A program made the translations under genes and the position numbers. DNA of 64,000 nt, taken from Euglena gracilis (taxonomy: Eukaryota). The stretch's first letter is position 1. Every line of letters starts with the position of its first letter. The notes below the pieces were generated by a model, which was not told where the DNA came from, did no database searches, and saw only the letters and a program-made list of their open reading frames with translations. Positions 4,505 to 58,440 of the stretch are shown in pieces. The DNA is taken from the NCBI GenBank assembly GCA_039621445.1, contig CP154954.1, forward strand, positions 37,185,703 through 37,249,702, given 5' to 3'.

Positions 4505-4932
4505 AGTGTACGTCCAAAGCTTTCCCTTTTCCCATTTTTGGGACTTTCTGTAAAAGCCTTTCGCTTTCGCCTTGGTGCGCAGCCTACATATGGTAGGGAA
4601 AAGTCTTTGGAGTAACGAAAAGTGGTTTTCCCCTTTTCTTCCCAATTCTCCAAGAAGCAAAGCACAAAGCAAAGATTCAGAAGTTTCTTCTGAGATCAAG
4701 TTCGATTGTTCTGAGGGTTTTTCCCTCTGACAAAACCAATGGTCAATCTTTGGAAGAATGACAGTGAAGAATACCGCCTGTGGTGGAAGGAGAGAAAAGT
4801 GCTGACGTGTCCAGGGGCAGATCCCAGAAGGGTCTGCCACGATCCTACCAGCTGTGGTTTTCCACAGTGGTGCGACCGTCACAGAACCCTCTCTGCAGAT
4901 ATCCTACAGAGCTGGGACGTGCCTGGTACACA
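4505..4932 (-). repeat. 3' LTR of copy 1 (428 bp, TGTGTAC...GTACACT on -)
   Basis: Reverse complement of 15741-16168 and 32057-32484. Adjacent to the PPT. Confidence 0.95.
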
Positions 4933-4942
4933 TCCCCCTCCC
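4933..4942 (-). promoter_or_regulatory. Polypurine tract of copy 1
   Basis: GGGAGGGGGA on - immediately before the 3' LTR, identical to 32047-32056. Confidence 0.85.
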
Positions 4943-5822
4943 AGGGCTACGCCCGATTTCCTTCATGGACCAGGGTTTCCCAGTCCAGTCAGGATATCTG
5001 ACGCTGCCCCAGGTGGGGTTCACTTCTTCATTCGGTGTCTCTCCTTTCCGCACAGTGGCATCCACCCAAAGCCCAAAAACGCGCAAAAGGTTAGCCGCGT
5101 TTCGCGGTTACCTATTAGCCGTTTTGGCTTTGGTGGGGTGTGAAAAAGCCCACTGTGGGAAACGGGGCTTGGCAGGTTTCCTGTCAAAGTGTCCCATCCA
5201 CCCACTTTGGGTGTGCCAAAGGCACGCGGGGTTGGTCAAGCAATTCGCTGAAATCCCCAGGGGAGAGGTGTGGAAGGGGCGGGGCAGGCTCCTATCCTGG
5301 TCATACCCGGATAGGGCTCCTAGGCGGTCTTATCAGCACTAGGAAACAAAAGCCTACTTACAAAACCGACTGCCGGCGACAGCTTTGCGGGGGTGGGGGG
5401 AAAGTAGGGTGGAGAGGGGGGCTGGCTTAGGCCAGAACAGAATTTTTGCTGTCTGGCAGCCTTAAGGGCCTTAGGGCCGAAAAGTGACAAGTTGGCCTAT
5501 TATTACGGCGTGCGCGCTGTGTGCTGTGCGTCACTTAGCGGCTTGCCAGGTTTCACGGCTGCCAAGGTCTTCACAGCAGTAGCTTCTTCACGACGCAATA
5601 AGAGGCGATTACCTCTTGCGGACGGTTTCCGTCCGCATGGCCATTTGCAGAGGGGGGCTGTTGGCGGGGGGGGGGGGGGGGCTCTCGGATGCTTCCATCC
5701 AGAGCGTAGGGTGCCACAGACCCAGGTTCATCCCAGGGCTGTTCAGCGATTTCCGCTACCAAAGTATATATATATATATATGTATAGTATATGGATGTCC
5801 AGGCTCCATGAAGGCACTTACC

Positions 5823-8800: not shown

Positions 8801-8827
8801 GCCTGGCTCCCTTCCACCGGGCAGCAT
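5823..8827 (-). pseudogene. Extra ORF3 of copy 1 (internally deleted, frameshifted), including the 8-Cys finger at 6572-6793
   Basis: ORF pieces 8537-8827, 6523-8559, 6233-6859 and 5823-6269 align to copy 2 ORF3. Lacks ~2.4 kb (copy 2 about 26022-28425). Confidence 0.85.
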
Positions 8828-8990
8828 GATACAGCCCGGGGTCGGTACGGTGGGATGTTGGGGTTGTTGTTTGTAAGGTGTGTAAGGGTAACCGCTTGAG
8901 TATTATTTGCTAAAAAGTCTGCGGAAAGAAAGAATGATAAGAATTAATGATAAAAAGGAAGAGAAAACAACATGGGTTTCCCATGAGTTC

Positions 8991-11900: not shown

Positions 11901-14085
11901 CCACTCGCTTTTCGAGGGTACAATCCACTTACACTGAATAAGCTTCTCATTTCATTGAGAGCTTGTTCGCGTTCTCCCGAACAACGAAAAAAATTACGGT
12001 GCATGGGTTTAGCTCCTTCCTTAAGCTCGATCTTACAAACACCGAACGGACCGCGTATCGCGGGGTCGATGTCGCACGCGTATACTGGATTTTCCAGCAC
12101 ACCGTGAAATTCGCGGGTGATCCGCGAACAGTATTCGTCTGACTTAGGATGCTGACCTGCACTCTCGATGACTGCGGAAACCACCAGGGTATCCCTGGGG
12201 CTACCGAGCTTCCTCGGCACCGCTAATTCGGACATTCCGAATGCATCGAAGAAACATACGCGAAAAATGATTTCTTGCAAGGGTGGTAATATTTTACCAC
12301 AAAAATCTTCAAAAATTGGTACATTTGTGGGTAAATCCCACCAATGAAAACATACATACGATAGTTGGGTGAACCATTCCGCTTCCGGAATGCTGGGTAT
12401 GAGAATAACTCCACGGGCTTCATCCCGCAGAATTTTCCCAACCGCACATTCGATAAGTTTTGGGGGAGGGTGCATCCATAACACTGTATCACCCCAAAAT
12501 TTATCAAATGCGTTGGAGTGTTGTGACCAATGACGTGGCAAACGGGCATGTGCATTGGATGAAAAGGCATCGGTTTCCAATGCCAAATCAAAAGAATCAG
12601 CCAATGTCCCGATTTTGGAAAACCATCGTTCCAAAATACGATATTGACCAAAATTGAAAGCATTCCATACGCGTTTCACGTATTCATGCTCCCTATTTCC
12701 GGGTTGGAGTGAAGAAACACAATGAATGGATCCCCAAACATGCGGGTTGTCTTCCACTACCTCAAGGGATAATCCCAAGGGAGTTTGGACAGGTTGGGGG
12801 TTTCCCCATTCCGCATCAAATTCATTCCAAGTGTACTCGGGATGGTGATTTGGCATAACGCTTTTCACGTTTCCGAACAACGAGGTTAATCCGCGTTGTT
12901 GGAGTACTCGGTGTATCTCCGCGCATTGCGGGCTACAACCAAGTGTATCATGGCCTGTGGTTTCCGTATTCCGAATAGTGATTAGTGTCAGATTTTCAAC
13001 TAAACATCCACAATCGAAATCCGATTGGGTGGAAATTCTCCTGCAGTGCACACATTGGAAGGAAGTGTGATGGTGTGACGGGTGTGTGTGTAAATGGGTG
13101 TCGGTGGCATTAGCCGGTGAGTCTTGTACAGGTGTGCCTGGATTCGGCACAACTGGTGGGAAACGGAGTGGTGGTGTAGCTGGGCGACTACTCGACAACG
13201 TACGTACTGCAGGCCTTTGGGCTTTCGTCTTGTAACCCAGTGAAACGGCGGGGGTACCGTTACTCGCTTGCCCTGCCTCATGTGGAACGCATGTTGGTGT
13301 GTCATTGGGCAGGAGGGAGGCTTTCTCCGTACCCCGGTTGTGGAAAACGGTTGTTGGTGTGGTGGATAACGGTGTTGCCATTGTAGGTAACGGTCTTGGA
13401 AAAGTGGTGATCATCATGGCGGATGCAAACGGTGATGGTGGTTTGGGTGTCAATGAAGTGGTGGGTGCTGTGCACAAACCGTGGGAGTGGCAATCCACAA
13501 CCAATCAGTACTGGCGTAAAAATGGGTATCCCAAAATTACGTCAGACCCGTGAATTCCGGACTCGTAACCCCAAATATTGGTGAAATGTTGTAATTGTGG
13601 GGGTTGTGAGTGATGCTTCGGAATGATGGGCAAGAGCATCTCGAGCACACATCCCAAATCACCACCACACATGGGGGTGTTATCCGCTGTTGTAATTTTG
13701 ATCGGTTTCTTGGCGCTTACCAAGAGCGGGGTCGGTATCAACCCCAACCGAAAGAGCAGTGCAATGCGCCAACCAGTGTCAAATCAAATTTTAACTTTAG
13801 TGGAGAAATTTTGAATGCGGATTTCCGCTTGGACAAGTAATTCCATTGGTGGTACGCAAAGTGAAGGATCTGGCGGAAATACGTTTGCATGCCAGCTCTC
13901 CCATGAACCCTTTCCAACTTTGCTCAGCATTCCGAGCGGAAATGTGGTGTGGGGGGGTAGGGGACCCGAAATAATTCCGCGTACTGACCGTGAAGGCGGA
14001 TGGGCAGGGGGGGTTAAGGTTGATGAGGTCTTACCTCCATCTGTTCATCAGCCCAGAGGTCCGTGCCCTCGGACCTCGGGCTCCC
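8991..14085 (-). pseudogene. pol: pol of copy 1 (PR-MTase-like-RT-RNH-IN-chromo), several frameshifts and stops
   Basis: Motifs include LDYRYLN, LPMGVKNGP, YIDD, EVDSSDYAVG, KTDHESL, HNHGH...CQIC, GNGRAEAAV and VRWRGYEPEEDTWEP. Confidence 0.93.
12242..12646 (-). other. Dam/DIRS-MT-like N6-adenine methyltransferase domain inside pol, in one open frame in copy 1
   Basis: ETDAFSSNAHARLPRHWS..NAFDKFWGDTVLWMHPPPKLIECAVGKILRDEARGVILIPSIPEAEWF matches the DIRS-MT/phage-Dam pattern DxFAS..N..LP.(F/Y).S...DAF..W....(N/F)PP..LI..VL.KI.....ILI.P.W....W. Confidence 0.75.
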
Positions 14086-15740
14086 CTACTCCAAGTCCGA
14101 ACCGGCCGCATAGCCGGCAACATACTTTTTGGTGGAATAGATGGAATTTAATGAGCGCACCGCCATTCGGGCCTCATTAAATTCTCCCTCCGAGGTCTTA
14201 TCCCCCTCCCTGCCCGAAGCCGGGGTGTCCTCCTCCAAACAAGATATCTTGAAACCGACCTTTTGCCGGTTGGAGGAGTAACCACGGTCCTCGCGGCGCT
14301 TACCGCGATTTCCGTAGCCGGACCAAGGGGAACGAGATCTGGGACATTTGGATGAGTGGTGGTCTTTGGAACCGCAAAGTGAACAACGGGATTTGTGGCA
14401 GGAATCCGTGTAACAGGGGGAACGGTATTCCGTTTTTCCGTCAAACCGTCGTGGTGAACGAGTTTCCCCTCGAACATGACCGGTGTACCGGGGGTTCCCC
14501 GGTGACTCCCGCGAAGAGGATGATCCACTTCGCGAACGAGATCGTGAAGAGTCGCGATTGAAATCCTGTTTTCGGGTAGGGGGTCCAGGTGACCGACCGC
14601 GAGAGGGACGGGTTTCCCGACCATCACGCGATGGTGACTTGGGCCTACTACCGCTAAAGCGGTTCTCCGAAGAACGTGAAACTCCCGATTGACGTGAAAA
14701 CGCCGAGGAACCCGATCCCCGTGAGGAGGTCGAGCCACTTGGGCTTCCAATACGCTTTCGCGCATCGGGATTCGGGCATTCCCGAGGCATGTGACCAGAT
14801 TTGTTGCACAAAAAGCACAGTTTATCCGTGCCTTGGTCCGAAGAACGCTGATTCCGCGTTTTCGGTCCCGTGGTGGGTGATCTTGGTGATATGGGTGATT
14901 TTTGCAACGCGTTAACCGCACCCGCAGGGATTCCCGCGGTGGGATGCGTTTGGAAAGCGGACTGTATTTGTCCCAAAACTTGTGTGAGTTTGAGTTGCTT
15001 TGACACATAATTCCAACGTTGGGCAAGAGTCATCTCATGCCCTGCCAACTCCTCGCGATGGATATCCTTCACGAGGGATGGTGTGAAATGCAACAAAACC
15101 GCATCGAATTGTTCGCGCATTTGCTTCTCGCTAAGTTCATCAACTTCGGAAGCAAGTGCTAACCATTTGGCATACCAAAGGTCAATGGTTTTCCATTTGC
15201 GATCCGATGGCGCGCATTGTCGCCATTTCTTTTCCAGGGTAATCCTGGTGACCAAGCTTGAGTTGGTTGAAGCGTATTGCTCAACCAGGTCATCAAATGA
15301 TACGCCATTACGTATTACCAAATTGCGCGCGCGTTCTCGCTCCTCCCTCGGTAGGCAATCCATGAATTCCATCTTGACCACCTCGGGATTCGGGTCTTGG
15401 GTGGGTCCCTTTAGTGCCCAGTAGTACTCCCAATCCCGAAAAAATTGTCTCCATGTGGACGGATCCCCGTCCCATTGGGGTTTCACCTTGTTCGCTATGG
15501 TGATGGTGCCCCTGAAGTCTCTCTGAGTAACCCGCTGACCCTCGGTGGTATTCCAGGGGTTTGGGTCAGGGTAATTCTTCACACCAAACGCGTTTCGCGG
15601 ATTTTCCGCTCCATGTGTACCCCGTGCAGGATTTCCCGCACCAAGTGTAGGGGTGGCAGGATTTTCCTGCGGGAATTGCGAAAAATGTGGTGAAATTCTC
15701 CCGGTGGGGCAGGTTCCCCGCCGAAAACCCGATGGGTGAT
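14086..15740 (-). pseudogene. gag: 3' part of gag, copy 1 (interrupted at 15740 by the LTR of copy 2)
   Basis: CFLCNKSGHMPREC and CSLCGSKDHHSSKC zinc knuckles, an RS-rich spacer, ending DLE-TAG. Confidence 0.9.
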
Positions 15741-16168
15741 TGTGTACCAGGCACGTCCCAGCTCTGTAGGATATCTGCAGAGTGGGTTCTGTGACGGTCG
15801 CACCACTGTGGAACACCACAGCTGGTAGGATCGTGGCAGACCCTTCTGGGATCTGCCCCTGGACACGTCAGCACTTTTCTCTCCTTCCCCCACAGGTGGT
15901 ATTCTTCACTGTCAATCTTCCCAAGTTTGACCATTGGTTTTGTCAGAGGGAAAAACCCTCGGAACAGTCGAACTTGACCTCAGAAGAAACTTCTGAGTCT
16001 TTGCTTTGTGCTTTGCTTCTTGGGGAATTGAGAAGAAAAGGGGAAAACCACTTTTCGTTACTCCAAAGACTTTTCCCTACCATAGGTAGGCTGCGCACCA
16101 AGGCGAAAGCGAAAGACTTTTACAGAAAGTCCCAAAAAGAGGAAAAGGGAAAGTTTTGGACGTACACT
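15741..16168 (+). repeat. 5' LTR of copy 2
   Basis: TGTGTACCAGG...GGACGTACACT, a direct repeat of 32057-32484, followed by the PBS. Confidence 0.95.
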
Positions 16169-16178
16169 TGGTAGCAGA
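16169..16178 (+). promoter_or_regulatory. Primer binding site, tRNA-iMet type
   Basis: TGGTAGCAGA directly after the LTR, complementary to the ...UCUGCUACCA 3' end found in many eukaryotic initiator tRNAs. Confidence 0.75.
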
Positions 16179-16422
16179 TTTAGGCAACGATCCTACACAG
16201 ACGTTCCACACAGAGAAACTCTGTGGTTGACTGGTGGTGAGGATCGTACTGAGCCGTGAAACACGGTGAAAGTATTGTTCCTGGCCCCTAGCCAACCCTT
16301 AAACAAGGATACAGGTCTCAGAAGGTTCTGTTCGGTATTCGCCGATACAACCTTTCTGGTCCCTGTTTCACTGCTTATTTGTGTGAATTTTTGAGTTTTT
16401 GCCTTTTTACCCATCTCAAAAG

Positions 16423-19400
16423 ATGCAGAGCACAACCCCCAACAGCAAATTTGATTATGACTTGTTGATGAGTTCATTGACCAATCTTGATGAAGATTGC
16501 GGGGATTGGAACGGTTCGAATGAAACAAGTTCCAATTCCCGACTCCCCAAGCAACAAGAAGACACATTGCATCAATTGTCATTGTCACAAGGCGAAACGC
16601 CTTCATTGTTGCAAGGGGGTAATGAACCCTCTTCATCATCATTGTCATTGATTGTGCGGGATGTGGGCGGCAAAATGCCTACCTCCATCCCGGTTCACCC
16701 GTCATTGATTCGGCGAGGGGATGAACCCCTTGCACCGTTACACTTGGCAACTCATGTAACCCATGAACAAAGTGAGGGGTATTTGCCCTTTGCTCTGTTC
16801 ACACCCAAAAGATCCCCGGTGGAAGCACCGGTGGGCCTTTTGGAGTGCAACTCGGTGGAAACACCGTGTTTTTTCCAACCCCCCCCCCTCAATTTCCACC
16901 CCCCACACCATTCCAGGGATTACCCGCGGAAACTGCGGTTTTCCCTGCTTTGCCATGGAACCCAGATATGCGTCTGGTGGTACCGGAAAACTCTGGTGCC
17001 GTTTCCATTGTGGATGACTATGAGGAAGATTTGAGGGATAACCTCAGCCCCGGTGATGTTTACCATATTCTCGGTCAACTCCCAGCGGATCACCCGCTGA
17101 ACAAGCAAATTTTGCATGTCCACCAATGTGTTGGGGAATGTGCAACCATGCTCAACAAGGTTTTGCAGTTTGATGAGGACAATCAAAGGGTTGTCAACAC
17201 CAAGCTGGAATATTGCTGGAATTATTTGCAGGAAATCGGCAAATATTGCCAACACAATTTTGAAAATGCGGGGAAAGACCTTCAGCATTTTCGAGAAAGT
17301 GTTGACAGTATTTTGCGCATCCAACTTCCACAAAATTTCCAACAAATCAGCGAAATGCTGCATGAAGCGGAAACGCGGAATGATTCCAAGTTTCTGCATG
17401 TGCAGGATGGTATGAGCCATCTTTTTGCCAAAGTAGAATCATGTTCAACCATGCTACTGCAATTGCAGCAGCAGTTACAAGCGCAAAATGCCACTCCCAA
17501 AATGCCGGAAATCGGTAACTTTGTTGCGGTTGAGCATTTTGCCACACTCACTACTTCTTTCCAAGAAGCCCAACAACGGATTTTGCATCTCTGCTCGGAA
17601 ATCGAGCATTTGAAGCAATTTCAAGCGACGGTGCAAGAAAATTTTGTTCCCAGTACGCAAATCCAGGTTTTGGAGGAACGCATCCTACATTTGGAGCAAA
17701 AATCCTGCCATTGTGCCGCAAATCAGGATGGATTAACCACCCTGCACGCAAAAATCGCGCATTGCGCACAACGGTTGTATTTCGCGCAACAACAATCGCA
17801 AACGGACATCGGCGGTATTAATGCCACCGTTGTCGGTTTGCAGGAGCATGTTTCTGCACTTTCCAAGCGAATTCCTGACATTAGTGGTATTCAAGCCGCT
17901 ATTGGGGAATTACAAACCCGTTGCACCTTGTTGTCTACCACGGTAGCAGAAATTCGCGCACTTCCCAATACTTCGCGTGCGCGGATATCGGAGTCACCGG
18001 AATTTCGCTCATTTTATAACAAAATGCTTGGTGACAACAAGGAAACCTCGCAAGCATTTTGTACGAGTTTGATTCAACTTGAGGAATCTGTGAATCGGAA
18101 TGCCGGATCAATGCAAGATGAGGTTTCACGGTTGGATGGACGAATTTCTGCGGTGTTGGAAAAGCCAACCGCGGAAAATTCGCGCACCACCGCGGAAACC
18201 CCCACCAAGGCACCCCACCAATTGTAAATTGTCTCAAATGCAGTAAAAGCGCTTGCGGGTCAACTCCGGAATGTGGAGGAGTCCCAAGGACAACTTGTCC
18301 AAGATTTACACTTGGTTTCTGAAAAGTTACCACACTTGGACGATTTTTCCCGTTACCGCAAACGCATTCGGCATTTGGAGACTGAGGTTGACCGTATTTG
18401 CGGCCAACTCCAGTTGGTGGAACATTTGGAAGAAACGGTGCATGACTTGTCCGCGAGTTTGGATAAAATGTCCGCTCCGGTACCGGTTGTGCCACCACCC
18501 ACCGCGGTAAGCGCTGCGGTTGGTATTCCAAATGTCCCGGAATCGCGTTCTCAAACTACCATTTCCGGGGTGGGAATACCTACATCCACCGCGAATTTGG
18601 TACAACCACCCGCGAAAACGCGAATTGTACCACCTTTGCTGTTGCCAACACCGCAAACCCACTTTTCACGGGAAATTTCCGATGAGGAAATTGATCCCCC
18701 GCTCGAGAATTCGAGTCTCCACCAGGAAATTCAACATTCCAACCTTGTACGAGGAATGAGCCAACACCCCGCACCTGGTATTGGTCATGTGTCGCATTCG
18801 CGATCATACCAACCACCATCGGGTTCTGGATTACCAGATCACCCATCGGGTTTTCGGCGGGAAACCCGCCCTACTGGGAGAAAATCACCACATTTTTCGC
18901 AATTCCCGCAGGAAAATCCTGCCACCCTTACACTTGGTGCGGGAAATCCTGCACGGGGTTTATATGAAGCGGAAAATCCGCGAAACGCGTTTGGCGTTAA
19001 GAATTACCCGGACCCAAACCCCTGGAATACCACCGAGGGTCAACGGGTTACTCAGAGAGACTTCAAGGGCACCATCGGAATCGCGAACAAGGTGAAACCC
19101 CAATGGGACGGGGATCCAACCACATGGAGACAATTTTTTCGGGACTGGGAGTACTATTGGGCACTAAAGGTACCAACCCAAGACCCGAATCCCGAGGTAG
19201 TCAAGATGGAATTCATCGATTGCCTACCGAGGGAGGAGCGAGAACGCGCACGCAATTTGGTGATACGCAATGGCGTATCATTCGATGACCTGGTTGAGCA
19301 ATACGCTTCAACCAACTCAAGTTTGGTCACCAGGATTACCCTGGAGAAGAAATGGCGACAATCCGCGCCATCGGATCGCAAATGGAAATACATTGACCTT

Positions 19401-20478
19401 TGGTATGCTAAATGGTTAGCACTTGCTTCCGATGTTGATGAACTTAGCGAGAAGCAAATGCGCGAACAATTCGATGCGGTTTTGTTGCATTTCACACCAT
19501 CCCTATCGTGAGGAGTTGGCAGGGCATGAGATGACTCTTGCCCAACGTTGTAATTGTGTGTCAAAGCAACTCAAACTCACACAAGTTTTGGGACAAATAC
19601 AGTCCGCTTTCCAAACGCATCCCACCACGGGAATCCGTGCGGGTGCGGTTAATGCGTTGTAAAAATCACCCATGTCACCGAGATCACCCACCAATGGACC
19701 GAAAACGCGGAATCAGCGTTCTTCGGACCAAGGCACGGATAAACTGTGCTTTTTGTGCAACAAATCTGGTCACATGTCTCGGGAATGCCCGAATCCCGAT
19801 GCGCGAAAGCGTATTGGAAGCCCAAGGGGCTCGACCTCCTCACGGGGATCGGGTTCCTTGGCGTTTTCGCGACAATCGGGAGTTTCACATTCTTCGGAGA
19901 ACCGCTTTAGCGGTAGTAGGCCCAAGTCACCATCGCGTGATGGTCGGGAAACCCGTCCTTCTCGCGGTCGGTCACCTGGACCCCCTACCCGAAAACAGGA
20001 TTTCAATCGCGATTCTTCACGATCTCGTTCGCGAAGTGGTTCATCCTCTTCACGCGAGTCATCGGGGAAGTCCCGATCCACCGGTCATGGTCGACGGGAA
20101 ACCCGTTCACCACGACGGTTTGACGGTCGAACGGAATACCGTTCCCCCCGTTATGCGGAATCCCGCCACAAATCCCGTTGTTCACTTTGCGGTTCAAAAG
20201 ACCACCACTCATCCAAATGCCCCAGATCTCGTTCCCCCCGGCCCGGCTACTGGAATCGCTGTAAGCGCCGCGATGACCGTGGTTACTCCTCCAACCGGCA
20301 AAAGGTCGGTTTCAAGATTTCTTGTTTGGAGGAGGACACCCCGGCTTTGGGCAGGGAGGGGGATGAGACCTCGGACAGGGAATTTAATGAGGCCCGAATG
20401 GCGGTGCGCTCATTGAATTCCATCTATTCCACCAAAAAGTCCGTTGCCGGCTATGCGGCCGGTTCGGACTTGGAGTAG
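16423..20478 (+). pseudogene. gag: gag of copy 2 with a long N-terminal coiled-coil-like extension (~1350 codons when joined; frameshifts and stops)
   Basis: ORF pieces 16399-17034, 16845-18227, 18273-19511 and 19672-20478. Capsid-like PQWDGDPTTWRQFFRDWE segment and two CCHC knuckles. Confidence 0.85.
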
Positions 20479-20514
20479 GGGAGCCCGAGGTCCGAGGGCA
20501 CGGACCTCTGGGCT
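20476..20514 (+). promoter_or_regulatory. Putative gag-pol stop-codon readthrough signal (TAG + hairpin)
   Basis: TAG-GGG-AGCCCGAGGTCCG-AGGGCA-CGGACCTCTGGGCT. Pol continues in the gag frame. Identical in copy 1 (14050-14088). Confidence 0.7.
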
Positions 20515-23500
20515 GATGAACAGATGGAGGTAAGACCTGATCAACCTTACCCCCCCTGCCCATCCGCCTTCACGGTCAGTACCCGGAATTATTTCGGGTC
20601 CCCTACCCCCCACTCCACATTTCCGCTCGGAATGCTGAGCAAAGTAGGAAAGGGTTCATGGGAAAGCTGGCATGCAAACGTATTTCCGCCAGACCCTTCA
20701 CTTTGCGTACCACCAATGGAATTACTCGTCCAAGCGGAAATCCGCATCCAAAATTTCTCCACTAAAGTTAAAATTCTCATTGACACTGGTTGTCGCATTG
20801 CACTGCTTTTTCGGTTGGGGTTGATACCGACCCCGCTCTTGGTAAGCGCCAAGAAACCGATCAAAATTACAACCGCGGATAACACCCCCATGTGCGGTGG
20901 TGATTTGGGATGTGTGCTCGAGATACTCTTGCCTATCATTCCGAAGCATCACTCACACCCCCCACAATTACAACATTTCACCAAGTTTTTTGGTTACGAG
21001 TCCGGAATTCACGGGTCTGACGTAATTTTGGGATACCCATTTTTACGCCAGTACCGATTGGTTGTGGATTGCCACTCCCACGGTTTGCGCACAACACCCA
21101 CGACCGCATTGCCACCCAAACCACCATCACCGTTGGCGTCAACCATGACGACCACCACTTTTTCAACACCGTTACCTACAATGGCAACACCGTTATCCAC
21201 CACACGAACCACCGTTTTCCACACCCGGGGTACGGAGAAAGCCTCCCCCCTACCCAATGACACACCTACATGCGTTCCACATGAAGTAGGGCAAGCGAGT
21301 AGCGGTACCCCCGCCGTTTCACTGGGTTACAAGACGAAAGCCCAAAGGCCTGAAGTAATTACGGTGTCGAGTAGTCGCCCAGCTACACCACCACTCCGTT
21401 TCCCACCAGTTGTGCCGAATTCAGGCACACCTGTACAAGACTCACCGGCTACTGCCATCGACACCCTCTTATACGCACACCCGATACACCAACACACTTC
21501 CTACCAATGTGTGCACTGCAGGAGAAATTCCACCCAATCGGATTTCGATTGTGGGTGTTTAGTTCAAAATCCGACACTGATCGCAATTCTGATTACGGAA
21601 TCCACACGGCATGACACACTTAGTTGTAGCCCGCAATGCGCGGAGATACACCGAGTACTCCAACAACGCGGATTAACCTAGTTGTTCGGATACGCGAAAA
21701 GCGTTATGCCTAATCACCATCCCGAGTACACTTGGTATGAATTTGATGCGGAATGGGGAAACCCCCAACCTGTCCAAACTCCCTGGGGATTACCCCTTGA
21801 GGTAGTGGAAGACAACCCGCATGTTTGTGGATCCGTTCATTGTGTATCTTCACTCCAACCCGGAAATAGGGTGCATGAATACGCGAAACGCGTATGGAAT
21901 GCTTTCAATTTTGGTCAATATCACATTTTGGATCGATGGTTTTCCAAAATTGCGACATTGGCTGATTCTTTTGATTTGACATTGGAAATCGATGCCTTTT
22001 CATCCAATGCACATGCCCGTTTGCCACGTCATTCGTCACAACACTCCAACGCATTTGATAAATTTTGGGGTGATACGGTGTTATGGATGCACCCTCCCCC
22101 CAAACTTATCGGATCCCCCCAAAACTTGTCAAATGTGCGGTAGAGAAAATTCTGCGGGATGAAGCCCGTGGAGTTATTCTCATACCCATCATTCCGGAAG
22201 CGGAATGGTTCACCCAACTATCATATGTGTGTTTTCATTGGTGGGATTTACCCACAAATGTACCGATTTTTGAGGATTTTTGAGGTAAAATATTACCACC
22301 CTTGAAAGAAATCATTTTTCGCGTATGTTTCTTCGATGCGTTCGGAATGTCCGAATTCGCGGTGCCGAGGAAGCTCGGTAGCCCCAGGGATACCCTGGTG
22401 GTTTCCGCAGTCATCGAGAGTGCAGGTCAGCATCCTAAGTCAGCCGAATTCTGTTCGCGGATCACCCGCGAATTTCACGGTGTGCTGGAAAATCCAGTAT
22501 ACGCGTGCGACATCGACCCCGCGATACGCGGTCCGTTCGGTGTTTGTAAGATCGAGCTTAAGGAAGGAGCTAAACCAATGCACCGAAAATTTTTTCGTTG
22601 TTCGGGAGAACGCGAACAAGCTCTCAATGAAATGATTGAGAAGCTTATTCAGCGCAAGTGGATTGTGCCCTCGAAAAGCGAGTGGACATCCCAGGCATTT
22701 GTTGTTCCTAAACCCCCAGACCACTTAGGTAAGAAGAAATGGAGACTGGTGCTGGATTACCGGTACCTGAACTCCCAAACAAGGGATGATCCCTTCCCGC
22801 TCCCCCTGATCGAGGATTTGATCACCAAACAATCGGAAAACCGGTTGTGGTCAATTTTCGATCTGGAGGACGGTTTTCACCAAATGCACTTGCACCCTGA
22901 CTCCCAACCATACACGGCATTCGTGACATCCAAGGGTGTGTACCAATGGACGGTACTCCCCATGGGTGTTAAGAATGGCCCAGCCATGTTTCAGCGCATG
23001 ATACAATGGGTTCTACGCGATTTACCGTTTGCCATTGTGTACATTGATGATGTGCTGGTGGGAACACCACCACCATCCGCAAAATCGAGCGAGGATATCC
23101 TCGTCACACACTTCCACCATGTTTGCGCGGTATTAACCGCTTTTCAAAAACATGTGCTTTTCGCGAAAGGCGCGAAAATGCATTTGTTTCGGATACTTAT
23201 AAAATTTTGCGGTCACATCCTCAGCAATGGACAGCGGAAAGCCGCTCCGAGTAAACTCGAAGCCATTAAGAAATGGACCCCTGAGGTAATCAAAACGATT
23301 ACTCACCTCAAAGGATTTTTGGGATTAGCCCAATATTACGAGATTTATAAGAAAGACTTCGCGAAAATCGCGGTGCCCCTCACCAAACAGCTCAAAAACC
23401 GGGCTGTTGACAACACCAAAGTCATTTGGGATGACCAAATGCGCGAAGCCCTTGAGAAAATCAAGGTTTTGCTTTTGGAGAATGTTGTCCTCGAAATCGC

Positions 23501-25595
23501 GGACCCATACAAACCATACGTACTGGAAGTCGACAGCAGCGATTACGCTGTTGGCGGAGTTCTTAGCCAGCATAACGCGGCGAATGAGCTCCGACCTGTG
23601 GCTTTCTTCAGCAGAAAGTTACAGGGCGACGACGGAAAAGGTCAAGTCAAGTGGAGTATACGCGAGAAGGAAACCTACGCAATCGTGCTTATACTCCAGA
23701 AATTCCGAAGCTGGGTAGCCAGCAGCCTCGTCCAGATCCTCGTCAAGACCGATCATGAGAGTCTCCAACACTGGTACACCGAGGATTTGAACAAGGCCAT
23801 GTCATCGGTCGGAAGGCGATGCAGATGGCATGAGTTCTTGAGTCAATTCAACCTTGTGGTTATTTATACCCCTGGTCACACACAAAAAGTAGCGGATCCG
23901 CTCAGTCGGGCCCCTTGGTATTACCCTGGGAACCCGGATGAGGGAGACGCGACTTTTCATGGAAGTCAGGAAGCTGACGAATACGCACGTCGAAACGACG
24001 CTGCGGATAATCTTTTGGATTCTTTTCCCGTTTCACAACTATTCCTGGTCGCACCAGTGCGCGGAAGGCGCCGACGTGGAAGCACGTCCGGACCCCGGCG
24101 TATTACGCGCACGGAGTCCCCTTCCCCACTGTTCTTTCGCGAATGGGATTATAGTCGTGATCCGGTGTATGACACCATTGTCACCAGACTTCGTAATGGC
24201 GAAGTGCTGGACAATTACACTCTTTCACCTTTACGGTTGGTTTTTCGCAATGAATCGGGTTACAAATATTGTATCCCCCAGGACCTGGTTGATGATGTGA
24301 TTTTATGCTATCACAACCACGGTCACCCTGGGGCCCCCAAACTTCTTTCGTTGGTGGGCCGCAGGTATTGCACAACCCTGAGCGAGAAAGAACTTTACTC
24401 ACGCTGTTTGCGAATAGCGCAACGGTGTCAAATTTGTCAAGCGGTAAAACCCCGCAGAGGTACCCCCCTGGTACGATGGACTTTTTCCCCGTACCCCATG
24501 ACATTTTTACCTCCCTCTGCGTGGATTTTCCGGAATTAGAACCGTGCAAAGGACGGACGACAAAATTTACGATTACGTTTTTGTTGTTGTCTGCAGGCTG
24601 AGTGGGTACATTGTAGCCATTCCATGCCAGAAGTCAGGGTTGACTGCCCAAAGTTTGGCAACTATATTTTTGGAGAAATGCATTTGCTTAATGGGTTTAC
24701 CGAATGAAATCGTGAGTGATCAAGACCATTTGATTTCTTCAAGGTTTTTCACCACTTTGTGCGGTTTACTCGGAATTGAGCAACATTTTTCCATTATATA
24801 CCGACCCAAAGGCAATGGTAGAGCCGAGGCAGCCGTGAAATCCGTCGTGAATATGCTTCGCCTTTCACTGGCTGACTCGCGCAGCAACTGGATATCAGTT
24901 CTACCATGGTCTTTGTTTTATATCAATACCCTACCAGGGTTGGTTTTACCTCACTCCCCCTATAAATTAGTTTTCGGACGGGACCCTCCGGCCATAGGGG
25001 ATGTCCCTTCGGAGAGACCCGCGCGAACGAGTGTCAGTTGCGAGACCTGGTTTGCGGAAGTAGAAAATCTACGTTCTGCAGTCCAGAAGCGCGTGACTGA
25101 TATTCATGCAACCAAACGGAAATCGTTTTTGCAGAATTTCAAGTCACCTGTGTATAGTCCCGGTGACCGCGTGTGGGTGCGGAATAGCCGTACTCGCATG
25201 CAGTCTTCCAAGCTGGACCCCTTTGGCTCGGCCCCTGTGAAATCCTAGAAAGACTAGGTACCAGCGGGCGTTACAAGGTTGCATTACCGAATGGTGTTGA
25301 GGACGTTCATATGGACGACTTCAAACCATACCTGTCGCCACCGGATGGGAAACCCATCCCGTGTTTGCACTTCAAACCCCGTTCCAGATTACCTGAGACG
25401 GATGATTTTGTAGTCGATAAAATTATCGATCACAAAATCGACAAAGGTATGCACCTTTGGAAGGTCCGCTGGAAAGGGTATGGGCCCGAGGAGGACACTT
25501 GGGAGCCAGCAACCAGTTTTGTTGGGTATGTCCAGCAAGATTGGAAGCTGTGGAACAAGAAGCATAACATTGATGTTTCCATGACAAGTTTTTGA
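20479..25595 (+). pseudogene. pol: pol of copy 2: aspartic protease, MTase-like domain, RT, RNase H, integrase, chromodomain
   Basis: ILIDTGC (protease), YIDD, RNase H acidic motifs, HHCC, IVSDQD...RAE, and chromodomain FVVDKIIDHK...WKVRWKGYGPEEDTWEP. Stops at 21679 and 22281, plus frameshifts. Confidence 0.95.
21916..22340 (+). other. Dam/DIRS-MT-like domain in copy 2 pol (broken by a short tandem duplication near 22095-22130 and a stop at 22281)
   Basis: EIDAFSSNAHARLPRH...NAFDKFWGDTVLWMHPPPKLI / KILRDEARGVILIPIIPEAEWF...FRVCFFDA. Confidence 0.72.
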
Positions 25596-25756
25596 GAACG
25601 CATGGGAAACCCATGTTGTTTTCTCTTCTTTTTATCATTGATTCTTATCATTCTTTCTTTCCGCAGACTTTTTAGCAAATAATACTCAAGCGGTTACCCT
25701 TACCAACAAACAACCAACCATCTACACAACTAACCAAGCTGACCCCGGGCGGTAAT

Positions 25757-28700
25757 ATGCTGCCCGGCGGAAGGGAACCAGGCAGAGGACCGCCTTACCA
25801 CCCAACTCACCCACAGCCGGCCCAATATGCGTACCGATACGGTACACAGCCACCTGCACGGACTGCGGCTCAGGGAAACCCTGAAGCCAGCAGCAGTAGC
25901 AGGATGACCCAGATGCCCGCGGAAGCGCGGCCATCTCAGCCATCAGGCTCTCGTCGCCTCCCACCGTACGCGGGTGTGATGATCCACCGCACGGCGGAGA
26001 CGATTAACCGGGTTATGCGTATGAGCGCAAACCCGGCACCGGACCACCTACACTGTGGGATGACCACTGCCGTAAAATTTTGACCATCGCGAATACCCCT
26101 CCGGCCCTGTGGTGTATGTGCGCCCAGGCGACGATGACCGGTCTGGTGTATTACACCGACCCGGACGCGTCGGGATTCGCGGCGGACATTACCATGCGTG
26201 ACCTGGGCGTGGAAGTCCCGCCACAGGTAGCACGGCAGGTACCACCAGTCGCAACTTACACTTGACATTTTCGTGCTCACTCCCCCGGATTACCCGAGGA
26301 AGAGACAGTGGAAGCACCTGTCCGGAGTGAACACCCACGTGTGAAAGAAAGTATTTTTCGATCCCCTGAGCGCATGCCCCGGCGGGATTATCCTGCGCAG
26401 GAGCCTGTGTCTCAGTACACCGTCTCCGGGGATTACCCCCAGGAGGCGCCAATGCCACGGGATCAGTACGTGTATCCACCTCAACCCCACCCAACCATAC
26501 CTGACCCTATCCCACGACGTCCTGCGGAGGGAAACCCTCCCCCGACGTCTGACTCTGCCCGAAGCGCTCGTCCGCGGGAAGCCGCGGCAGCGCCTCGTGC
26601 GGCACCAGTTCCCCCGGTACGGGATGAACCCGTTAACCCGTGGACTGGCCGGCCGTTCGAGACTGAGGAGGAGCGTCAACAGTATGAATATGCTGTGACA
26701 ATCCAACGACAAATAGCACGTCGTCCCCCTGTTTCCGCTGGCCAGGGATACCCTGCCCGGGGGGAAATGACACGGGAAGAGCGCCAGCAGTATGATGCTG
26801 CTGTGTCGGCTCTCACAGGAGTCCCAGCTCCATCACGATCAAGTCAACCAGCGCGACAGCAGGACATTGCTGTGGCGGAAGCGCCATCAGCACGACCCAC
26901 CAGCTCTGCCGCCGGCAAGCGTGACCGCGGCCCGGAAAATCTGACGCCGCAGCCACAGCGCTGTTCGCCGAGGTCGGAAAATCCGCCCGCGGCGATGCAC
27001 GTCGACGCTGAGGAGGAAGCTCAGCCAGCGCCAGACGTGACGGCAGAACGGGCACGTCGGGAAACCCGACCATCCCCCGTCGCACCGGTTTACTCGAATC
27101 GTGGTGACGCTGAGCAGGAATTTGCTCGAACGCCAAGCACGGAATCCGTGACTTACCCTGTGTTTACACCGGAAGACCCAGAATACTGGGATTACTGGGC
27201 GACATTCGAATGGCTGTCTACACAAAGGGTAAGGGGAAAGGTAAAGGCAAGGGTAAGGGGAAAGGAAAAGGCCAGGAGAAAGGTGGGAAAGCCCCACCTG
27301 GCAAAGGCGGAAAAGCCGCTTGGCCAACTCCAGGCAAAGGCGGAAAATCTGCCGGACCCCCAGCAGGCAAGGGCGGAAAAGCCGCCGAACCTTCGAAAAC
27401 GAAGGACGATGACGTTACTGTAGTATTCACCTACCTGCAGGAGATCTGGCCGAAAATCGACGAAGATCTCCGGCAGTTTACACACGCAAGCAACGTGATC
27501 CACCGACCACCGGATGCGGTGCTCGAAGTGGTGCAGAATCGTATGTACGATCACTGCAAACGTTTTTTCTACAGTTCCGAACTTTATGCGTTTGAGGGAT
27601 ACCCTCATTCGGATGAAGTTGTCCTGGACCGGATGTCCGGTTTCTGGGAGCTGTGGTTCTGGTTGGGATACCCCTGCCAGAACTTCGGCATCTTTACCGA
27701 CCGAAACGGTCATACGTATGCCGACTGTTTGGGAACATGTCCTGACGACGAAACGTTCGTAGCACAGTTGAAGGAAATCTTCAACCACATGTATTCCGTC
27801 GGAGCACTGGGAATCCAGTGGAAATATTACCCCCTGCCGGAGAAACTCCAGGCACAGGCTGCGGTAATGTTCACGCGCAACCTCCAAGTATACTTGGACA
27901 GCATGTATGGCACGCTGTTCAAGGTGCTGGACGTCGACCTCGCGTACCCCCAGCGGTACAAACTGGAATGCCAGTTTTGCAAGGAAGTTCACATTGCTGA
28001 CTTCTGGGGTTTCGGGGAACGCGGAAAACTCCGACTGCCGAGAATGCCGGCAGCCAGCCGACCAGGAGATTCCTCCTGCATCAATGCCGGAATCCCAATA
28101 TCGGAAAAAAAAGGGCTGAAACAGCCGCGGAAGACAAAATTTCAGCTGCAACAGTACTGGCACCGGGCGTGGATTACCTACGTCCTGGAAGTCTACATTT
28201 ATTTCCTGGAACAGATGACCACTGATGTGGATATCCACAGGGGATACACCGAGGTGGACGCCAGGCCTCATGACCCAGAACGACGCAGGATGAACCTGCG
28301 GCCGGAATGGGAGCAGGCAGAAATCGGCCTGCGGGATCACCTGGACACCCAGTTCGGGGATATCCTCGACTGGAAGGAGTTCGAACCTTTCTTCGCAGCA
28401 CGCGAGGTAAGCCACACTCGGTATGCGGTCCCATTGCCCGCTTTCCTGGAAGACACAGGAGAGCAGGGTATGGGATGGAACCTTCGATCGCAGTGGGAAG
28501 ACCTCTGCTTGATCAACGAGGAAGAGCCGCAACCTCCACCCGGAAGCTGGGTGAGAGCGTCGTGGCCGCCCCCATACCCCAACTCTGACAGGAGTGAAAG
28601 TACAAGCTTTTACCGCCTGTCCGACGCACAAGGGTGCTACAGAAGCGGAAAAGACCCGCGTACTGCAGCACAACTCCACACAGAGGACTACCCTCCGGAA

Positions 28701-31187
28701 GCGGAGGAGGAGGAAGAAACGGTCCCCATGGCCGAGGATGAACCTCAGCCAGCGGAACCTCCGGCACGGGAAACCCGTAGCCCATCGGTCGTGATGCTGG
28801 ACACTGTGGCAGAAACTGCCCAGCGCCCAGGATCGTCGACAGGTGAAATGACACCTGTCCCACAGTCACCCACCTCACTGAGTACGACAGGTGTACCGAC
28901 CCCTCCACGGGAAAACCCGCCGGAGACGGTACCCCACACGCCTGAGGTATTACGCCTCAAGCTCCCTGTTTCCGGGGAAACCCCGTCGGCAGAGGAGCCA
29001 GCGGAGGAGCCCACTTCAGGTGAAGAACCTGAACGGCGCACCTCGCTGGGCGGACGCGTACTCGGTGGTTTGCGGTCCCTGATCGCAGTTGTCACTCCAC
29101 GTGGCACTGCGGCCAGTTCTTCCACGGCTGCGGCGGAAGCTGCCCAACCGGCGGAAGACACACATGACATAACAGCCATGGTGGAGGATGAACCTTCCCC
29201 AGCGGCGGCGCCACCACCGGTGTCGGAAGCGACACGGACGGAAGGCGAACAGACAGCAATCGCAGTGGAGACAACAACAACCGTGCCAGTACGGGATGAA
29301 CCTGTATCAGTACCGGTAGCGCCAGCCGAGGCACGGGATGAACCCACACCTCAGCGCATTTCCACCGCCACTGCACCAAAGCATTCAGGCACACGGACAC
29401 CGGCGCCTGAAAAACAGGCTGAGCGGACGTCCATGCCCCCACCACAGGCTCAACCAGCGCGAAGTGCGCCAGCCAAGCCTACACCCACACCATCCCCAAC
29501 GGCTGCCCCTGGGAAACCCACGGAAGCCGCAAGGGAACGCGTAGGACGACCCTCAGCTCGGGAAACCCCTGCTGAAGGTCAACGACGCTCGGTGTCGGGG
29601 GGAAGACCCCCGTCCCAAGCGTCACCACGCACCTGGGCAAGCAAGCGCGACGCCGACCGGCGGCCCTCGGATGCTCCGGAAACCGAAAGTCCAAAGGCCC
29701 CGGCAAAATCAAAGCCGGGCGCCGCACCTTGTATGCACGTACCGAAATGTGGTGATCAGCCCCCACCGAAAGGCGGTGGTGGTGCTGGCGGCCAGAGTGC
29801 TGCATCCTCCTCTCGGGGATTAACCTCGGGACAAGGATTCACGCACGTCACATCATCCGGCGATGGGAAAACCTCACAGCCGAAACCTGCGTTAAAGGGG
29901 CATGGAAAATCCCGCGCCTCAACAGCCGAGACACCTTCGGAAGACGAAGTTATCATCGACTGGAACGCGGTCAATCAGGATGATCCTGAGATTCATGACC
30001 TGAAAAACAGGTACATGATGATCGACCACAAACTGAGGACACAGCAATGCCTCAACCGGTGGATTGAGCCACTGTTCTGTCAGGGCCGAAAATGGTCCTT
30101 TGATCAGAACGTGACCTGGAATTATTACAATTCCAGATCCCCCCGTGTTTTGGCCCAATACTTCGGTGAGGAATTCCTCATCGACAAAACAACGGAAAAC
30201 CGTTTTGTGTGGCTTTGCACTGTATGCCACAAGATGTATAACAGTGCACCTGACCTGGGATTACCCCTCGTCCATGTGTGCAATCCTGTGAATCGGAAAT
30301 CGTTCCACAAGGATGTATACATCCCCAACTGTGCCGCCTTGGTATGCGCCAAGTGCGTGGACAGTTGGACCCACAAGCACAATTTTAGCTACACCGAGCG
30401 AGACGGTACGAATGTACCGATACTCTGCGTCAACTGCCTTCGAGGTACCTTCTGGCAAACTGCGGAAGGCGCAGTTCGCACAATCGTGCCAAGTGCCCAG
30501 AAGCCACTGGAGGAATACTCCACCTTGCACAAAAAGTACAAGGATTTTTTCAAGTACTCCAACCTCAAGCTTGACGACTACCGCCACACGGGAATGGCCC
30601 GTGGGTGGCAGATCGACAGTGGGGCGATACGCCTCGCTGCTGAGGCAGCAGGGGTAAGATTACCTTACCTCTGGGAGACAGCGGACAGGGAAAAGATATT
30701 TTTCCGCCTGTTCACAACCCAGGACCGAAACGGTCGCTGGTGCCTGCCACAATGGCCACCCGAAGACCACGGGATGACCTGGAAAGACTGGCTTGGGGCC
30801 GTATTACGACCCCATACAGTCCGCGCGGAATGTGCGTATCACATGCCGATTGACTTCCACCCGGGGAATGCCCCGCAGGTGTCAGCCAATCACCCACGGA
30901 TGAATCACTTCATCTGGCCAGCCACTCTGCCCAGGAAATTCTGGGAGAAGCTGCAATGGTTCCTCGCGGAAAGAGCGAGTGCAACCAAGCACACAGTCCC
31001 CGAAGGATAGGTTCGGTATTGGTTGGTACCTGATTTCGAATACGAATCGCCAGAAACCTGGCTTGTAGATAGGCCACCACCACCACAATTCCAGATGGTC
31101 CTTGTGGAAGATCCCTTGGACTCCCGCCATGATTATTGGCGGCTGGAACGGATGTAATGCCGAAACGGCATTACCGGGCTCATGTAA
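25757..31187 (+). pseudogene. Extra ORF3 (sense, after pol; ~1800 codons when joined), unknown function, with GK repeats, Pro/Ala-rich linkers and an 8-Cys finger at 30216-30437
   Basis: ORF pieces 25757-26083, 26080-26265, 26308-27423 and 27210-31010, continuing to TAA at 31185-31187. Copy 1 reads through the copy 2 stops (TGG for TAG, CAA for TAA). Confidence 0.85.
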
Positions 31188-32046
31188 GGTAAATGCCTTC
31201 ATGGAGCCTGAACATCCATATACTATATATATATATACACTGATAGCGGAAATCGCTAAACAGCCCTGGGATGACCCTGGGTCTGTGACACACAATCTGC
31301 GCTCTGGATGGAAGCATCCGTGAGCCCCCCCCCCCGCCGCCACCAATGGCCATGCGGACGGAAAACTGTCTGCAAGAGGTAATCGCCTCTTATTGCGTCG
31401 TGAAGGAGCTACTGCTGTGAAGACCTTGGCAGCCGGGAAACCTGGCAAGCCGCTAAGTGACACACAGCACACAGCGCGCACGCCGTAATAATAGGCCAAC
31501 TTGTCACTTTTCGGCCCTAAGGCCCCTTAAGGCTGCCAGACAGCAAAAATTCTGTTCTGGCCTAAGCCAGCCCCCCTCTCCTCCCTACTTTCCCCCCACC
31601 CCCGCAAAGCTGTCGCCGGCAGTCGGTTTTGTAAGTAGGCTTTTGTTTCCTAGTGCGGATATGACCGCCTAGGAGCCCTATCCGGGTATGACCAGGATAG
31701 GAGCCTGCCCCCCCCCCTTCCACACCTCTCCCCTCGGGTTTTCAGCGAATACGCTTGACCAACCCCGCGTGCCTTTGGCACACCCAAAGTGGGTGGATGG
31801 GACACTTTGACAGGAAACCTGCCAGCCCCGTTTCCCACAGTGGGCTTTTTCGCACCCCTAAGCCGAAACGGCTAATAGGTAACCGCGATAAGCGGTAACC
31901 TTTTGCGCGTTTTCGGGTTTTTGGGTTGCGCCCCTGTGGAGAAAAGAGATCCGTGTTCTGGAAAGCAGAACCCAATCAGGACTGTGTCTGAAATCTGGAC
32001 GGGACCTGGGATGACCTGGTCCAAGAAGGAAATCGGGCGTAGCCCT

Positions 32047-32056
32047 GGGAGGGGGA
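32047..32056 (+). promoter_or_regulatory. Polypurine tract of copy 2
   Basis: GGGAGGGGGA abutting the 3' LTR. Confidence 0.85.
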
Positions 32057-32484
32057 TGTGTACCAGGCACGTCCCAGCTCTGTAGGATATCTGCAGAGTG
32101 GGTTCTGTGACGGTCGCACCACGGTGGAAACCCACAGCTGGTAAGATCGTGGCAGACCCTTCTGGGATTTGCCCCTGGACACGTCAGCACTTTTCTCGCT
32201 TTCCCCCACAGGTGGTATTCTTTACTGTCATCAATTCCAAGTTTCACCATTGGTTTTGTCAGAGGGAAAAACCCTCGGAACAATCGAGATTGAACTCAGA
32301 AGAAACTTCTGAGACATTGCTTTGTGCTTTGCTTCTTGGGGAATTGGGAAGAAAAGGGGAAAACCACTTTTCGTTACTCCAAAGACTTTTCCCAACCATA
32401 AGTAGGCTGCGCACCAAGGCGAAAGCGAAAGGCTTTTACAGAAAGTTCCAAAAAGGGGAAAAGGGAAAACTTTGGACGTACACT
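32057..32484 (+). repeat. 3' LTR of copy 2
   Basis: 428 bp. About 28 mismatches to the 5' LTR by manual alignment. Confidence 0.95.

Positions 32485-34494: not shown

Positions 34495-58440
<23,946 letters not shown>

Follow-up and report, generated by a model that had tools for sequence, protein, structure and literature searches.

A stretch of 64,000 nucleotides (nt) of the Euglena gracilis genome (positions 37,185,703 to 37,249,702 of contig CP154954.1, assembly GCA_039621445.1; the whole stretch is hereafter designated as the window) contains two copies of a long terminal repeat (LTR) retrotransposon, one of which (copy 2) bears a long open reading frame (ORF), ORF3, downstream of pol. Eight regularly spaced Cys residues are found in the C-terminal part of ORF3. 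The module comprising these residues is best described as a lineage-restricted, undescribed zinc-binding domain, probably of the cross-brace class, in the accessory frame of a euglenid chromovirus-like retrotransposon. We regard it as reasonably probable that the eight Cys, likely together with one or two invariant His, are the metal ligands of a small zinc-stabilised domain forming the core of the conserved C-terminal module of ORF3, with a treble-clef/cross-brace fold around two Zn ions as the likeliest arrangement. The Cys pattern is conserved among homologues and belongs to a retrotransposon, and the module has no significant likeness to any named finger family. An initial annotation of the window took the same module for a PHD/ADD-like cross-brace finger, a possible second chromatin reader encoded beside a chromodomain.

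The eight-Cys module of ORF3 and its homologues

The pattern C-x2-C-x17-C-x16-C-x4-C-x2-C-x23-C-x2-C was found at 30216-30437 on the plus strand, in phase with ORF3 (the stop-to-stop frame 27114-31010), and the translation agrees exactly with the pattern given in the initial annotation. The Cys residues (C1 to C8) occupy positions 1, 4, 22, 39, 44, 47, 71, and 74 of the 74 residues. The parts of ORF3 considered here, and the counterpart of the finger in the other retrotransposon copy (copy 1), are as follows.

27114..31010, plus strand: ORF3, stop to stop, 1298 amino acids (aa), first Met at 27210, downstream of pol
30033..30515, plus strand: conserved domain around the finger, comprising an N-terminal flank of ~55 residues (with an invariant Q and an invariant D), the finger, and a beta-hairpin after C8, as delimited by alignments and the AlphaFold secondary structure
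30216..30437, plus strand: eight-Cys module of ORF3 in copy 2; the invariant ligand candidates are all of the Cys from C1 to C8 and two His, one directly following C2 and the other two residues ahead of C3
30516..31010, plus strand: C-terminal region of ORF3 up to the stop codon, conserved, mostly helical in the model, and homologous to P0006-P0009, P0011, and P0014 (see below for the homologues)
6572..6793, minus strand: finger of copy 1 in a broken ORF3, 73 of 74 residues identical to the finger of copy 2

The eight-Cys pattern is more than a product of chance. Of the 25 Cys in the 1298 residues of ORF3, 8 are concentrated in this 74-residue stretch, and a loose regular expression for the cross-brace arrangement matched only two places, both of them the fingers, among the 192 six-frame ORFs of at least 100 aa (32,868 residues).

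The initial annotation stated that all of the Cys are kept in copy 1, and this is indeed the case on the minus strand, where the sole change in the peptide is from N to D; the plus strand of the same interval encodes a different peptide interrupted by a stop. The two fingers differ at 4 of 222 nucleotides, 3 of which are synonymous, and the DNA of the finger block is 98% identical between the two copies, with 14 differences in 621 nt (6 synonymous and 8 non-synonymous). Because of this level of DNA identity and the broken frame, copy 1 is not an independent witness of the conservation of the Cys, and the synonymous and non-synonymous differences are too few for selection to be demonstrable from the two window copies.

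We subjected the last 354 residues of ORF3 to an exhaustive HMMER search with a cut-off of E <= 0.001, which retrieved 12 proteins. One of them, P0013 (648 aa, E 3.3e-4), was discarded as a homologue, as the match was driven by seven repeated stretches of C-x2-C units. Two of the 11 homologues retained, P0003 (48-49% identity) and P0006, are Euglena gracilis transcripts in EukProt, and the remaining nine are from single short contigs of ENA or JGI (957-2101 nt). The entire finger is covered in P0003, P0004, P0005, P0010, and P0012, which are distant from ORF3 (23-49% identity) and stem from Euglena gracilis transcripts and short metagenome contigs. As for the others, P0007 begins before C4, P0011 retains C7 and C8 only, and four homologues cover solely the region 3' of the finger. 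Word-indexed protein searches recovered a single relative with the 354-aa piece and two with the alignment as the query; when restricted by size to proteins of 713-2272 aa, the word-indexed search yielded no relative, and no fused or full-length relative was found. An alignment-based locus search in metagenome contigs matched 53 stretches, none of which was confirmed by tblastn. No Pfam or NCBIfam model matched the conserved C-terminal module. As far as the searched databases show, the C-terminal family of ORF3 appears to be restricted to euglenid-like sequences.

Conservation was assessed in six independent sequences, namely copy 2 of the window and the five homologues with full coverage of the finger, with copy 1 left out. 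Among the 106 ungapped columns of the domain, 16 are invariant: the eight Cys, the two His listed above as ligand candidates, the Thr after C1, the Ala after C4, the Pro three residues before C7, the Asn before C8, and one Gln and one Asp upstream of the finger. Cys positions that differ among copies, named in the initial annotation as grounds for abandoning the finger, were thus not encountered. The spacings C1-x2-C2, C4-x4-C5-x2-C6, and C7-x2-C8 are constant across the homologues, and the loops vary in length (12-17 residues for C2-C3, 13-17 for C3-C4, and 14-26 for C6-C7, P0007 included). Fixed Cys pairs separated by loops of free length, in combination with invariant Cys and His, are the signature of metal ligands.

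Predicted fold and candidate finger families

Two AlphaFold2 models were generated, one for the 354-aa piece with 12 alignment rows (model 1) and the other for the 161-aa domain with 8 rows (model 2). At the N-terminus, both models begin with a strand and a knuckle with C1 and C2. Two further strands follow, the first short and the second bearing His-x-C3, and beyond a long loop another strand spans C4 to C5. A helix then starts at C5/C6 and is followed by a loop, the C7/C8 knuckle, and a hairpin. The predicted local distance difference test score (pLDDT), taken in blocks of ten residues across the finger, ranges from 61 to 82 in model 1 and from 57 to 76 in model 2. A knuckle combined with ligands at the N-terminus of a helix constitutes a treble clef, and its interleaving with a second site constitutes the cross-brace of RING, PHD, FYVE, and ZZ. 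The predicted secondary structure and the weak structural matches described below are compatible with a two-zinc treble-clef/cross-brace fold. In common with the cross-brace class, the finger has four ligand pairs in the order of a knuckle, a strand-borne pair, a helix-start pair, and a knuckle, with C-x2-C at pairs 1, 3, and 4 and variable loops between the pairs, and weak structural and sub-threshold profile hints point to ZZ, RING, FYVE, and B-box. The sub-threshold rows of Pfam (RING variants, B-box, FYVE, and zinc ribbon) and the ESM Atlas neighbours, among which are RING-type and giant-virus RING clusters, are weak hints, and they converge on one structural class. We propose that the module would hold two Zn ions in the arrangement of the RING/FYVE/PHD/ZZ class, with an unusually long loop of 13-17 residues between ligands 3 and 4.

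There are several points that weigh against this proposal. The mean pLDDT is 56 in each of the two models, and Foldseek found no match at E <= 0.001 in PDB with either model, nor in BFVD, where the best E was 0.085. The ESM Atlas neighbours (0.84-0.88) are all below 0.9 and serve as leads only. Pfam, PDB sequence profiles, Foldseek, and VIA-align provided no significant assignment to PHD, ADD, RING, ZZ, or FYVE. Unlike the members of the cross-brace class, none of whose families it matches significantly, the ORF3 finger possesses the long loop and an extra invariant Cys between the second and third pairs, is embedded in a conserved module of ~330 aa without known relatives, and has ten invariant Cys/His instead of eight, so that two are left over from two metal sites. 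We infer zinc binding from the Cys/His pattern, and the number of metal sites and the cross-brace pairing likewise. Finally, ORF3 may be a gene in its own right or the C-terminal end of a longer pol that has decayed; in copy 2, it is separated from the chromodomain frame by at least three frame changes and one stop.

ORF3 comprises, from the N- to the C-terminus, a Lys/Gly-rich start, a region of ~400 aa, a disordered stretch of ~450 aa in which Pro, Glu, Ala, Thr, Ser, and Gly account for 65-72% of the residues, and the conserved C-terminal module. No relatives of the N-terminal ~400 aa were detected by Pfam, NCBIfam, and PDB sequence searches, and ESM Atlas gave no usable match. If the module is a zinc domain, it would be the core of the ~330-aa C-terminal module and may serve as a rigid platform by which the ORF3 protein is attached to an interaction partner. 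The candidate partners are a protein, chromatin, or a nucleic acid, either from the host or from the particle of the element itself, and the disordered stretch would act as a linker of ~450 residues between the zinc module and the N-terminal domain.

Among the alternatives, a RING- or ZZ-like module engaged in ubiquitin-type transfer or in the recognition of protein termini or degrons, for instance to remove or recruit a host factor, seems unlikely. In the Pfam scans (the 354-aa and 114-aa pieces and eight members of the alignment), the best rows were RING variants, zf-C3HC4_4 (E 0.02) and zf-RING_5 (E 0.18), and the RING rows as a whole (E 0.02-7) scored 7-15 bits against cut-offs of 27-30 bits. 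A phmmer search of PDB with the single protein returned rows at E 0.45-1.1 only, including the RING of RNF141 (E 0.5-1.1). VIA-align gave 16 rows, mostly ZZ and RING chains and none significant. The giant-virus RING clusters of ESM Atlas and the baculovirus PE38 and IE2-like proteins in BFVD (E 0.17-1.1, below significance) are in the same direction. Nevertheless, all of these scores are at the level of noise, and the ligand spacing differs from those of both families. A C3HC4-type RING has 2-3 residues between pairs 2 and 3, whereas ~21 residues separate His-x-C3 from C5 in the finger. The last ligand pair of a ZZ domain consists of two His, whereas that of the finger is C-x2-C.

It is rather unlikely, in our view, that the finger belongs to the FYVE/PHD class as a strongly diverged reader, whose long loop between ligands 3 and 4 would form a novel surface for recognising a histone tail or modified DNA.

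The more specific reading of the initial annotation, a divergent PHD/ADD-type finger that reads a histone tail and, as the second chromatin reader beside the chromodomain, targets or retains the element in particular chromatin, is possible but quite improbable. What stands of that annotation is a conserved, very probably zinc-binding Cys-rich module with a ligand order and a predicted secondary structure compatible with a cross-brace; the membership in PHD/ADD and the reader function were unsupported by the tests run. The ligand spacing of PHD/ADD is C-x2-C-x(8-21)-C-x(2-4)-C-x(4-5)-[HC]-x2-C-x(12-46)-C-x2-C. Pairs 1, 3, and 4 of the finger and C4-x4-C5-x2-C6 fit the all-Cys PHD of ADD domains, and strands are predicted before C3 and between C4 and C5. 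On the other hand, C3 and C4 are separated by 13-17 residues in the six sequences instead of 2-4. The finger resembles that of DNMT3/ATRX ADD in being all-Cys, in N-C-x4-C-x2-C around ligands 4-6, and in the long loop before C7-x2-C8. The likeness to the DNMT3 motif claimed initially extended to N-C-x4-C-x2-C-V-D, yet V-D after C6 is not kept across the homologues. Furthermore, there is no invariant Cys upstream of C1 (only one Q and one D are invariant there) that could constitute the GATA-like C4 half of ADD, and the finger is not joined to a cytosine methyltransferase. Pfam PHD, ADD_DNMT3, ADD_ATRX, and zf-4CXXC_R1 gave no row even at E <= 10 for the two pieces and the eight alignment members, although the HMMER filters drop most rows above E ~0.1. 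No solved PHD/ADD chain appeared at E <= 10 in the PDB sequence-profile searches. The Foldseek search of PDB, which the initial annotation proposed as a check, brought no PHD/ADD fold at E <= 0.001 with either model, and the rows for the ADD comparison were non-significant (E 2.2-2.3).

The genomic context is in favour of a PHD/ADD finger, as the same element carries a chromodomain and a Dam-like stretch. Euglena LTR elements combining a chromodomain, DAM, and, in a subset, DNMT have been described in the main text of a preprint (10.64898/2026.05.21.726589). According to the Discussion of PMC6673714, PHD fingers, like chromodomains, are widespread in retrotransposons, many of which encode a PHD finger. 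As a chromatin-type zinc finger beside a chromodomain in an LTR element, the ORF3 finger would embody the same idea as the PHD fingers cited there; those fingers are recognisable as PHD, in contrast to that of ORF3.

We consider a His-Me (HNH-like) nuclease, with the module as its zinc scaffold, or some other zinc ribbon that binds nucleic acids very improbable; such a protein would act on the RNA or DNA of the element and not on chromatin proteins. An invariant His and an invariant Asn do adjoin Cys pairs (C-x2-C-H and C-x-N-C), HNH-domain proteins are the best rows in BFVD (E 0.085-0.9), Hpy99I stands at rank 19 of the Foldseek search of PDB (E 3.5), and ribosomal zinc ribbons are among the rows of Foldseek and VIA-align. 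Nevertheless, all of these structural rows are non-significant, no HNH row appeared in Pfam at E <= 10, the order of the motifs is unlike that of HNH, and LTR elements already possess an integrase.

Least credible of all is the possibility that the Cys are not zinc ligands, being instead disulphides of an envelope-like secreted protein or, in the case of C-x2-C-H, a haem c attachment site: ORF3 does occupy the env position of retrovirus-like elements, and the search with the trimmed profile matched multihaem cytochromes via C-x2-C-H (E 0.2-0.6), but C-x2-C-H occurs once, the cytochrome matches are non-significant and regarded as a coincidence of motifs, three C-x2-C pairs are typical of metal sites, and ORF3 starts with the Lys/Gly-rich region. 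We found neither a signal-like start nor a membrane segment in ORF3 (the best Kyte-Doolittle mean over 19 residues was 1.08), and therefore an intracellular zinc protein is likelier than a disulphide-rich envelope protein.

Regarding the PDB profile searches, the untrimmed alignment profile found nothing at E <= 10 among all PDB chains. The trimmed profile gave six rows at E 0.2-1 (multihaem cytochromes, a p53 fusion, and an ADP-ribose pyrophosphatase), which we rejected as noise. No zinc-finger chain was retrieved by the sequence-profile searches of all PDB chains.

The retrotransposon carrying ORF3

The window holds two inverted, decayed copies of one chromodomain-bearing Ty3/gypsy-like LTR element of ~16.7 kilobases (kb). 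The copies and the other recognisable domains of copy 2 are listed below.

15741..32484, plus strand: copy 2 of the LTR retrotransposon, with LTRs at ~15741-16168 and 32051-32484 that are 93% identical
4505..15740, minus strand: copy 1, inverted and 5'-truncated, 92-95% identical to copy 2 and directly adjoining its 5' LTR
19663..20478, plus strand: gag-like frame with a CCHC zinc knuckle (Pfam zf-CCHC, E 3.1e-07)
21682..22143, plus strand: weak Dam-like stretch upstream of the reverse transcriptase (PF05869, E 0.0046, below the cut-off)
22284..25248, plus strand: reverse transcriptase, RNase H, integrase zinc-binding domain, and integrase core in two overlapping frames, 22284-24539 for the first three and 24502-25248 for the core
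25188..25595, plus strand: chromodomain frame, with the chromodomain at ~25407-25514 (Pfam Chromo, E 3.2e-11)

The pol domains were detected with Pfam E values of 8.4e-25 (RVT_1), 4e-24 (RT_RNaseH_2), 1.4e-06 (Integrase_H2C2), and 1.7e-08 (rve). The gag knuckle, reverse transcriptase, RNase H, integrase, and chromodomain all lie upstream of ORF3 on the same strand; together with the LTRs and the position of the chromodomain after the integrase, they are the features of chromovirus-like Ty3/gypsy elements. The chromodomain that the initial annotation placed in the same element is clear, with 43.4 bits against a cut-off of 25.1.

The candidate for the methyltransferase-like domain postulated in that annotation is a weak Dam-like stretch. 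It is present in both copies, but its matches to PF05869 (E 0.0022 in copy 1 and 0.0046 in copy 2; 17-18 bits) are below the cut-off of 28.1 bits, and no match to it was found in NCBIfam or among PDB sequences. Adenine methyltransferases possess a D/N-P-P-Y/F motif. We found H-P-P-P at the expected position of this motif, and no [DNS]-P-P-[YFWH] motif was present in the sense-strand frames of copy 2 (20401-22400) or in the Dam-like ORF of copy 1 (11816-13504, minus strand). The methyltransferase of this element family may be inactive or very divergent, judging from these motifs. Of the 61 sense-strand ORFs of at least 60 aa listed for copy 2, 13, including all of those of at least 250 aa, were scanned with Pfam, and none of the 13 matched the cytosine-type DNA_methylase.

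ORF3 of copy 2 is open over 3.9 kb (27114-31010), whereas the gag-pol region (16776-25595) is broken up into eight or more frames in this copy. A GC-rich, stop-poor composition may explain part of this openness, as an antisense frame of 557 aa (27192-28865) is likewise open. Three gaps disrupt ORF3 of copy 1: one of 16 nt at 6878, one of 1 nt at 6256/6257, and one of 2,412 base pairs (bp) relative to copy 2.

Part of ORF3 is present in 20 of the 24 sequencing runs listed, and the share of ORF3 words found is 0.65-0.70 in 14 DNA runs from one organism. Four runs have contigs that cover the whole element with a likeness of at least 90%; the contigs of X18, a metatranscriptomic RNA library, fall on all 30 bins of 16200-32000 at this level. 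The finger is covered by contigs of X15 (29993-30385, 4 differences) and X16 (30327-30746, 8 differences), for which, as for X17, the RNA status is a guess and carry-over of DNA is possible. The run contigs show that related copies exist elsewhere, and they may reflect transcription, which we do not count as proven.

Two parts of copy 2 have no counterpart in copy 1, the first ~2.7 kb of the internal region and 26023-28434. The second is the stretch of 2,412 bp missing from copy 1 at 8552-8559, which in copy 2 accommodates the frame 26266-27423 and ~440 residues at the N-terminus of ORF3. Contigs of other runs span 26023-28434, and they also show joints that skip 26542-27008 and 27407-28048. 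Together with the gap in copy 1, these joints indicate that the region is structurally variable among copies. In addition, the contigs of all four runs compared have one extra base relative to the window at each of 24462, 24552, and 25217; thus, at least some of the frame breaks in pol are private to copy 2. The two copies meet head to head at 15740/15741, where the truncated end of copy 1, which corresponds to 18838 in copy 2, is joined directly to the first bases of the copy 2 5' LTR. Such a junction may stem from a nested or rearranged insertion or may have been created by the assembly.

The remainder of the window contains other repeats. A tandem array at 1-4629 comprises ~21 units of 208-212 bp, many of them with 99-100% identity. 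It borders immediately on the LTR end of copy 1 (4505) and looks like a satellite adjoining the retrotransposon pair. Dense short repeats with a spacing of 8-14 bases (45 overlapping copies reported) are found at 56631-57150; this array coincides with the long open frames 56226-57353 (minus strand) and 56289-57146 (plus strand) and a strong GC skew of 0.24. Two dispersed pairs of direct repeats outside the retrotransposon, 41398-41631/54616-54849 (82%) and 44344-44552/49130-49338 (87%), may be fragments of other repeats.

Relation to Euglena DAM-LTR elements and implications

The architecture of the window element fits that of the Euglena DAM-LTR elements (10.64898/2026.05.21.726589), the defining feature of which is a prokaryote-like DNA adenine methyltransferase domain within the element. 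Like the DAM-LTR/EpiLTR elements presented there, the window element is Ty3/gypsy-like and carries a chromodomain and a Dam-like stretch, and the nearest protein relatives of ORF3 are Euglena gracilis transcripts. Unlike them, it has a Dam-like match below the Pfam cut-off with H-P-P-P at the motif, and no DNMT was found. The same preprint reports that Euglena DNA is heavily methylated as 5-methylcytosine and bears N6-methyladenine at promoters. The words 'zinc', 'ORF3', and 'additional ORF' are absent from its main text, and 'PHD' appears in the acknowledgements only; its supplements may show the region in domain diagrams. Judged by title and abstract, none of the papers retrieved on Euglena, LTR retrotransposons, and zinc fingers deals with such a domain. 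As PHD fingers in retrotransposons have already been published (cited in the Discussion of PMC6673714), the general concept is not new.

Retrotransposons with domains for chromatin and DNA methylation show the adaptation of mobile elements to the epigenomes of their hosts, and the Euglena elements have recently been proposed as extreme cases. As the last frame of the element contains a conserved zinc module that belongs to no recognised family, the description of the protein set of the element is not yet complete. The finger domain is also a small expressible target (~160 aa) for binding studies. If the module is a plain structural zinc domain of an accessory protein, its interest would be limited to the annotation of euglenid repeats. 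If it turned out to be a divergent reader, it would be the third epigenetic module of the element, in addition to the chromodomain and the Dam-like domain, and would broaden the 'EpiLTR' concept by a family of readers that does not occur elsewhere.

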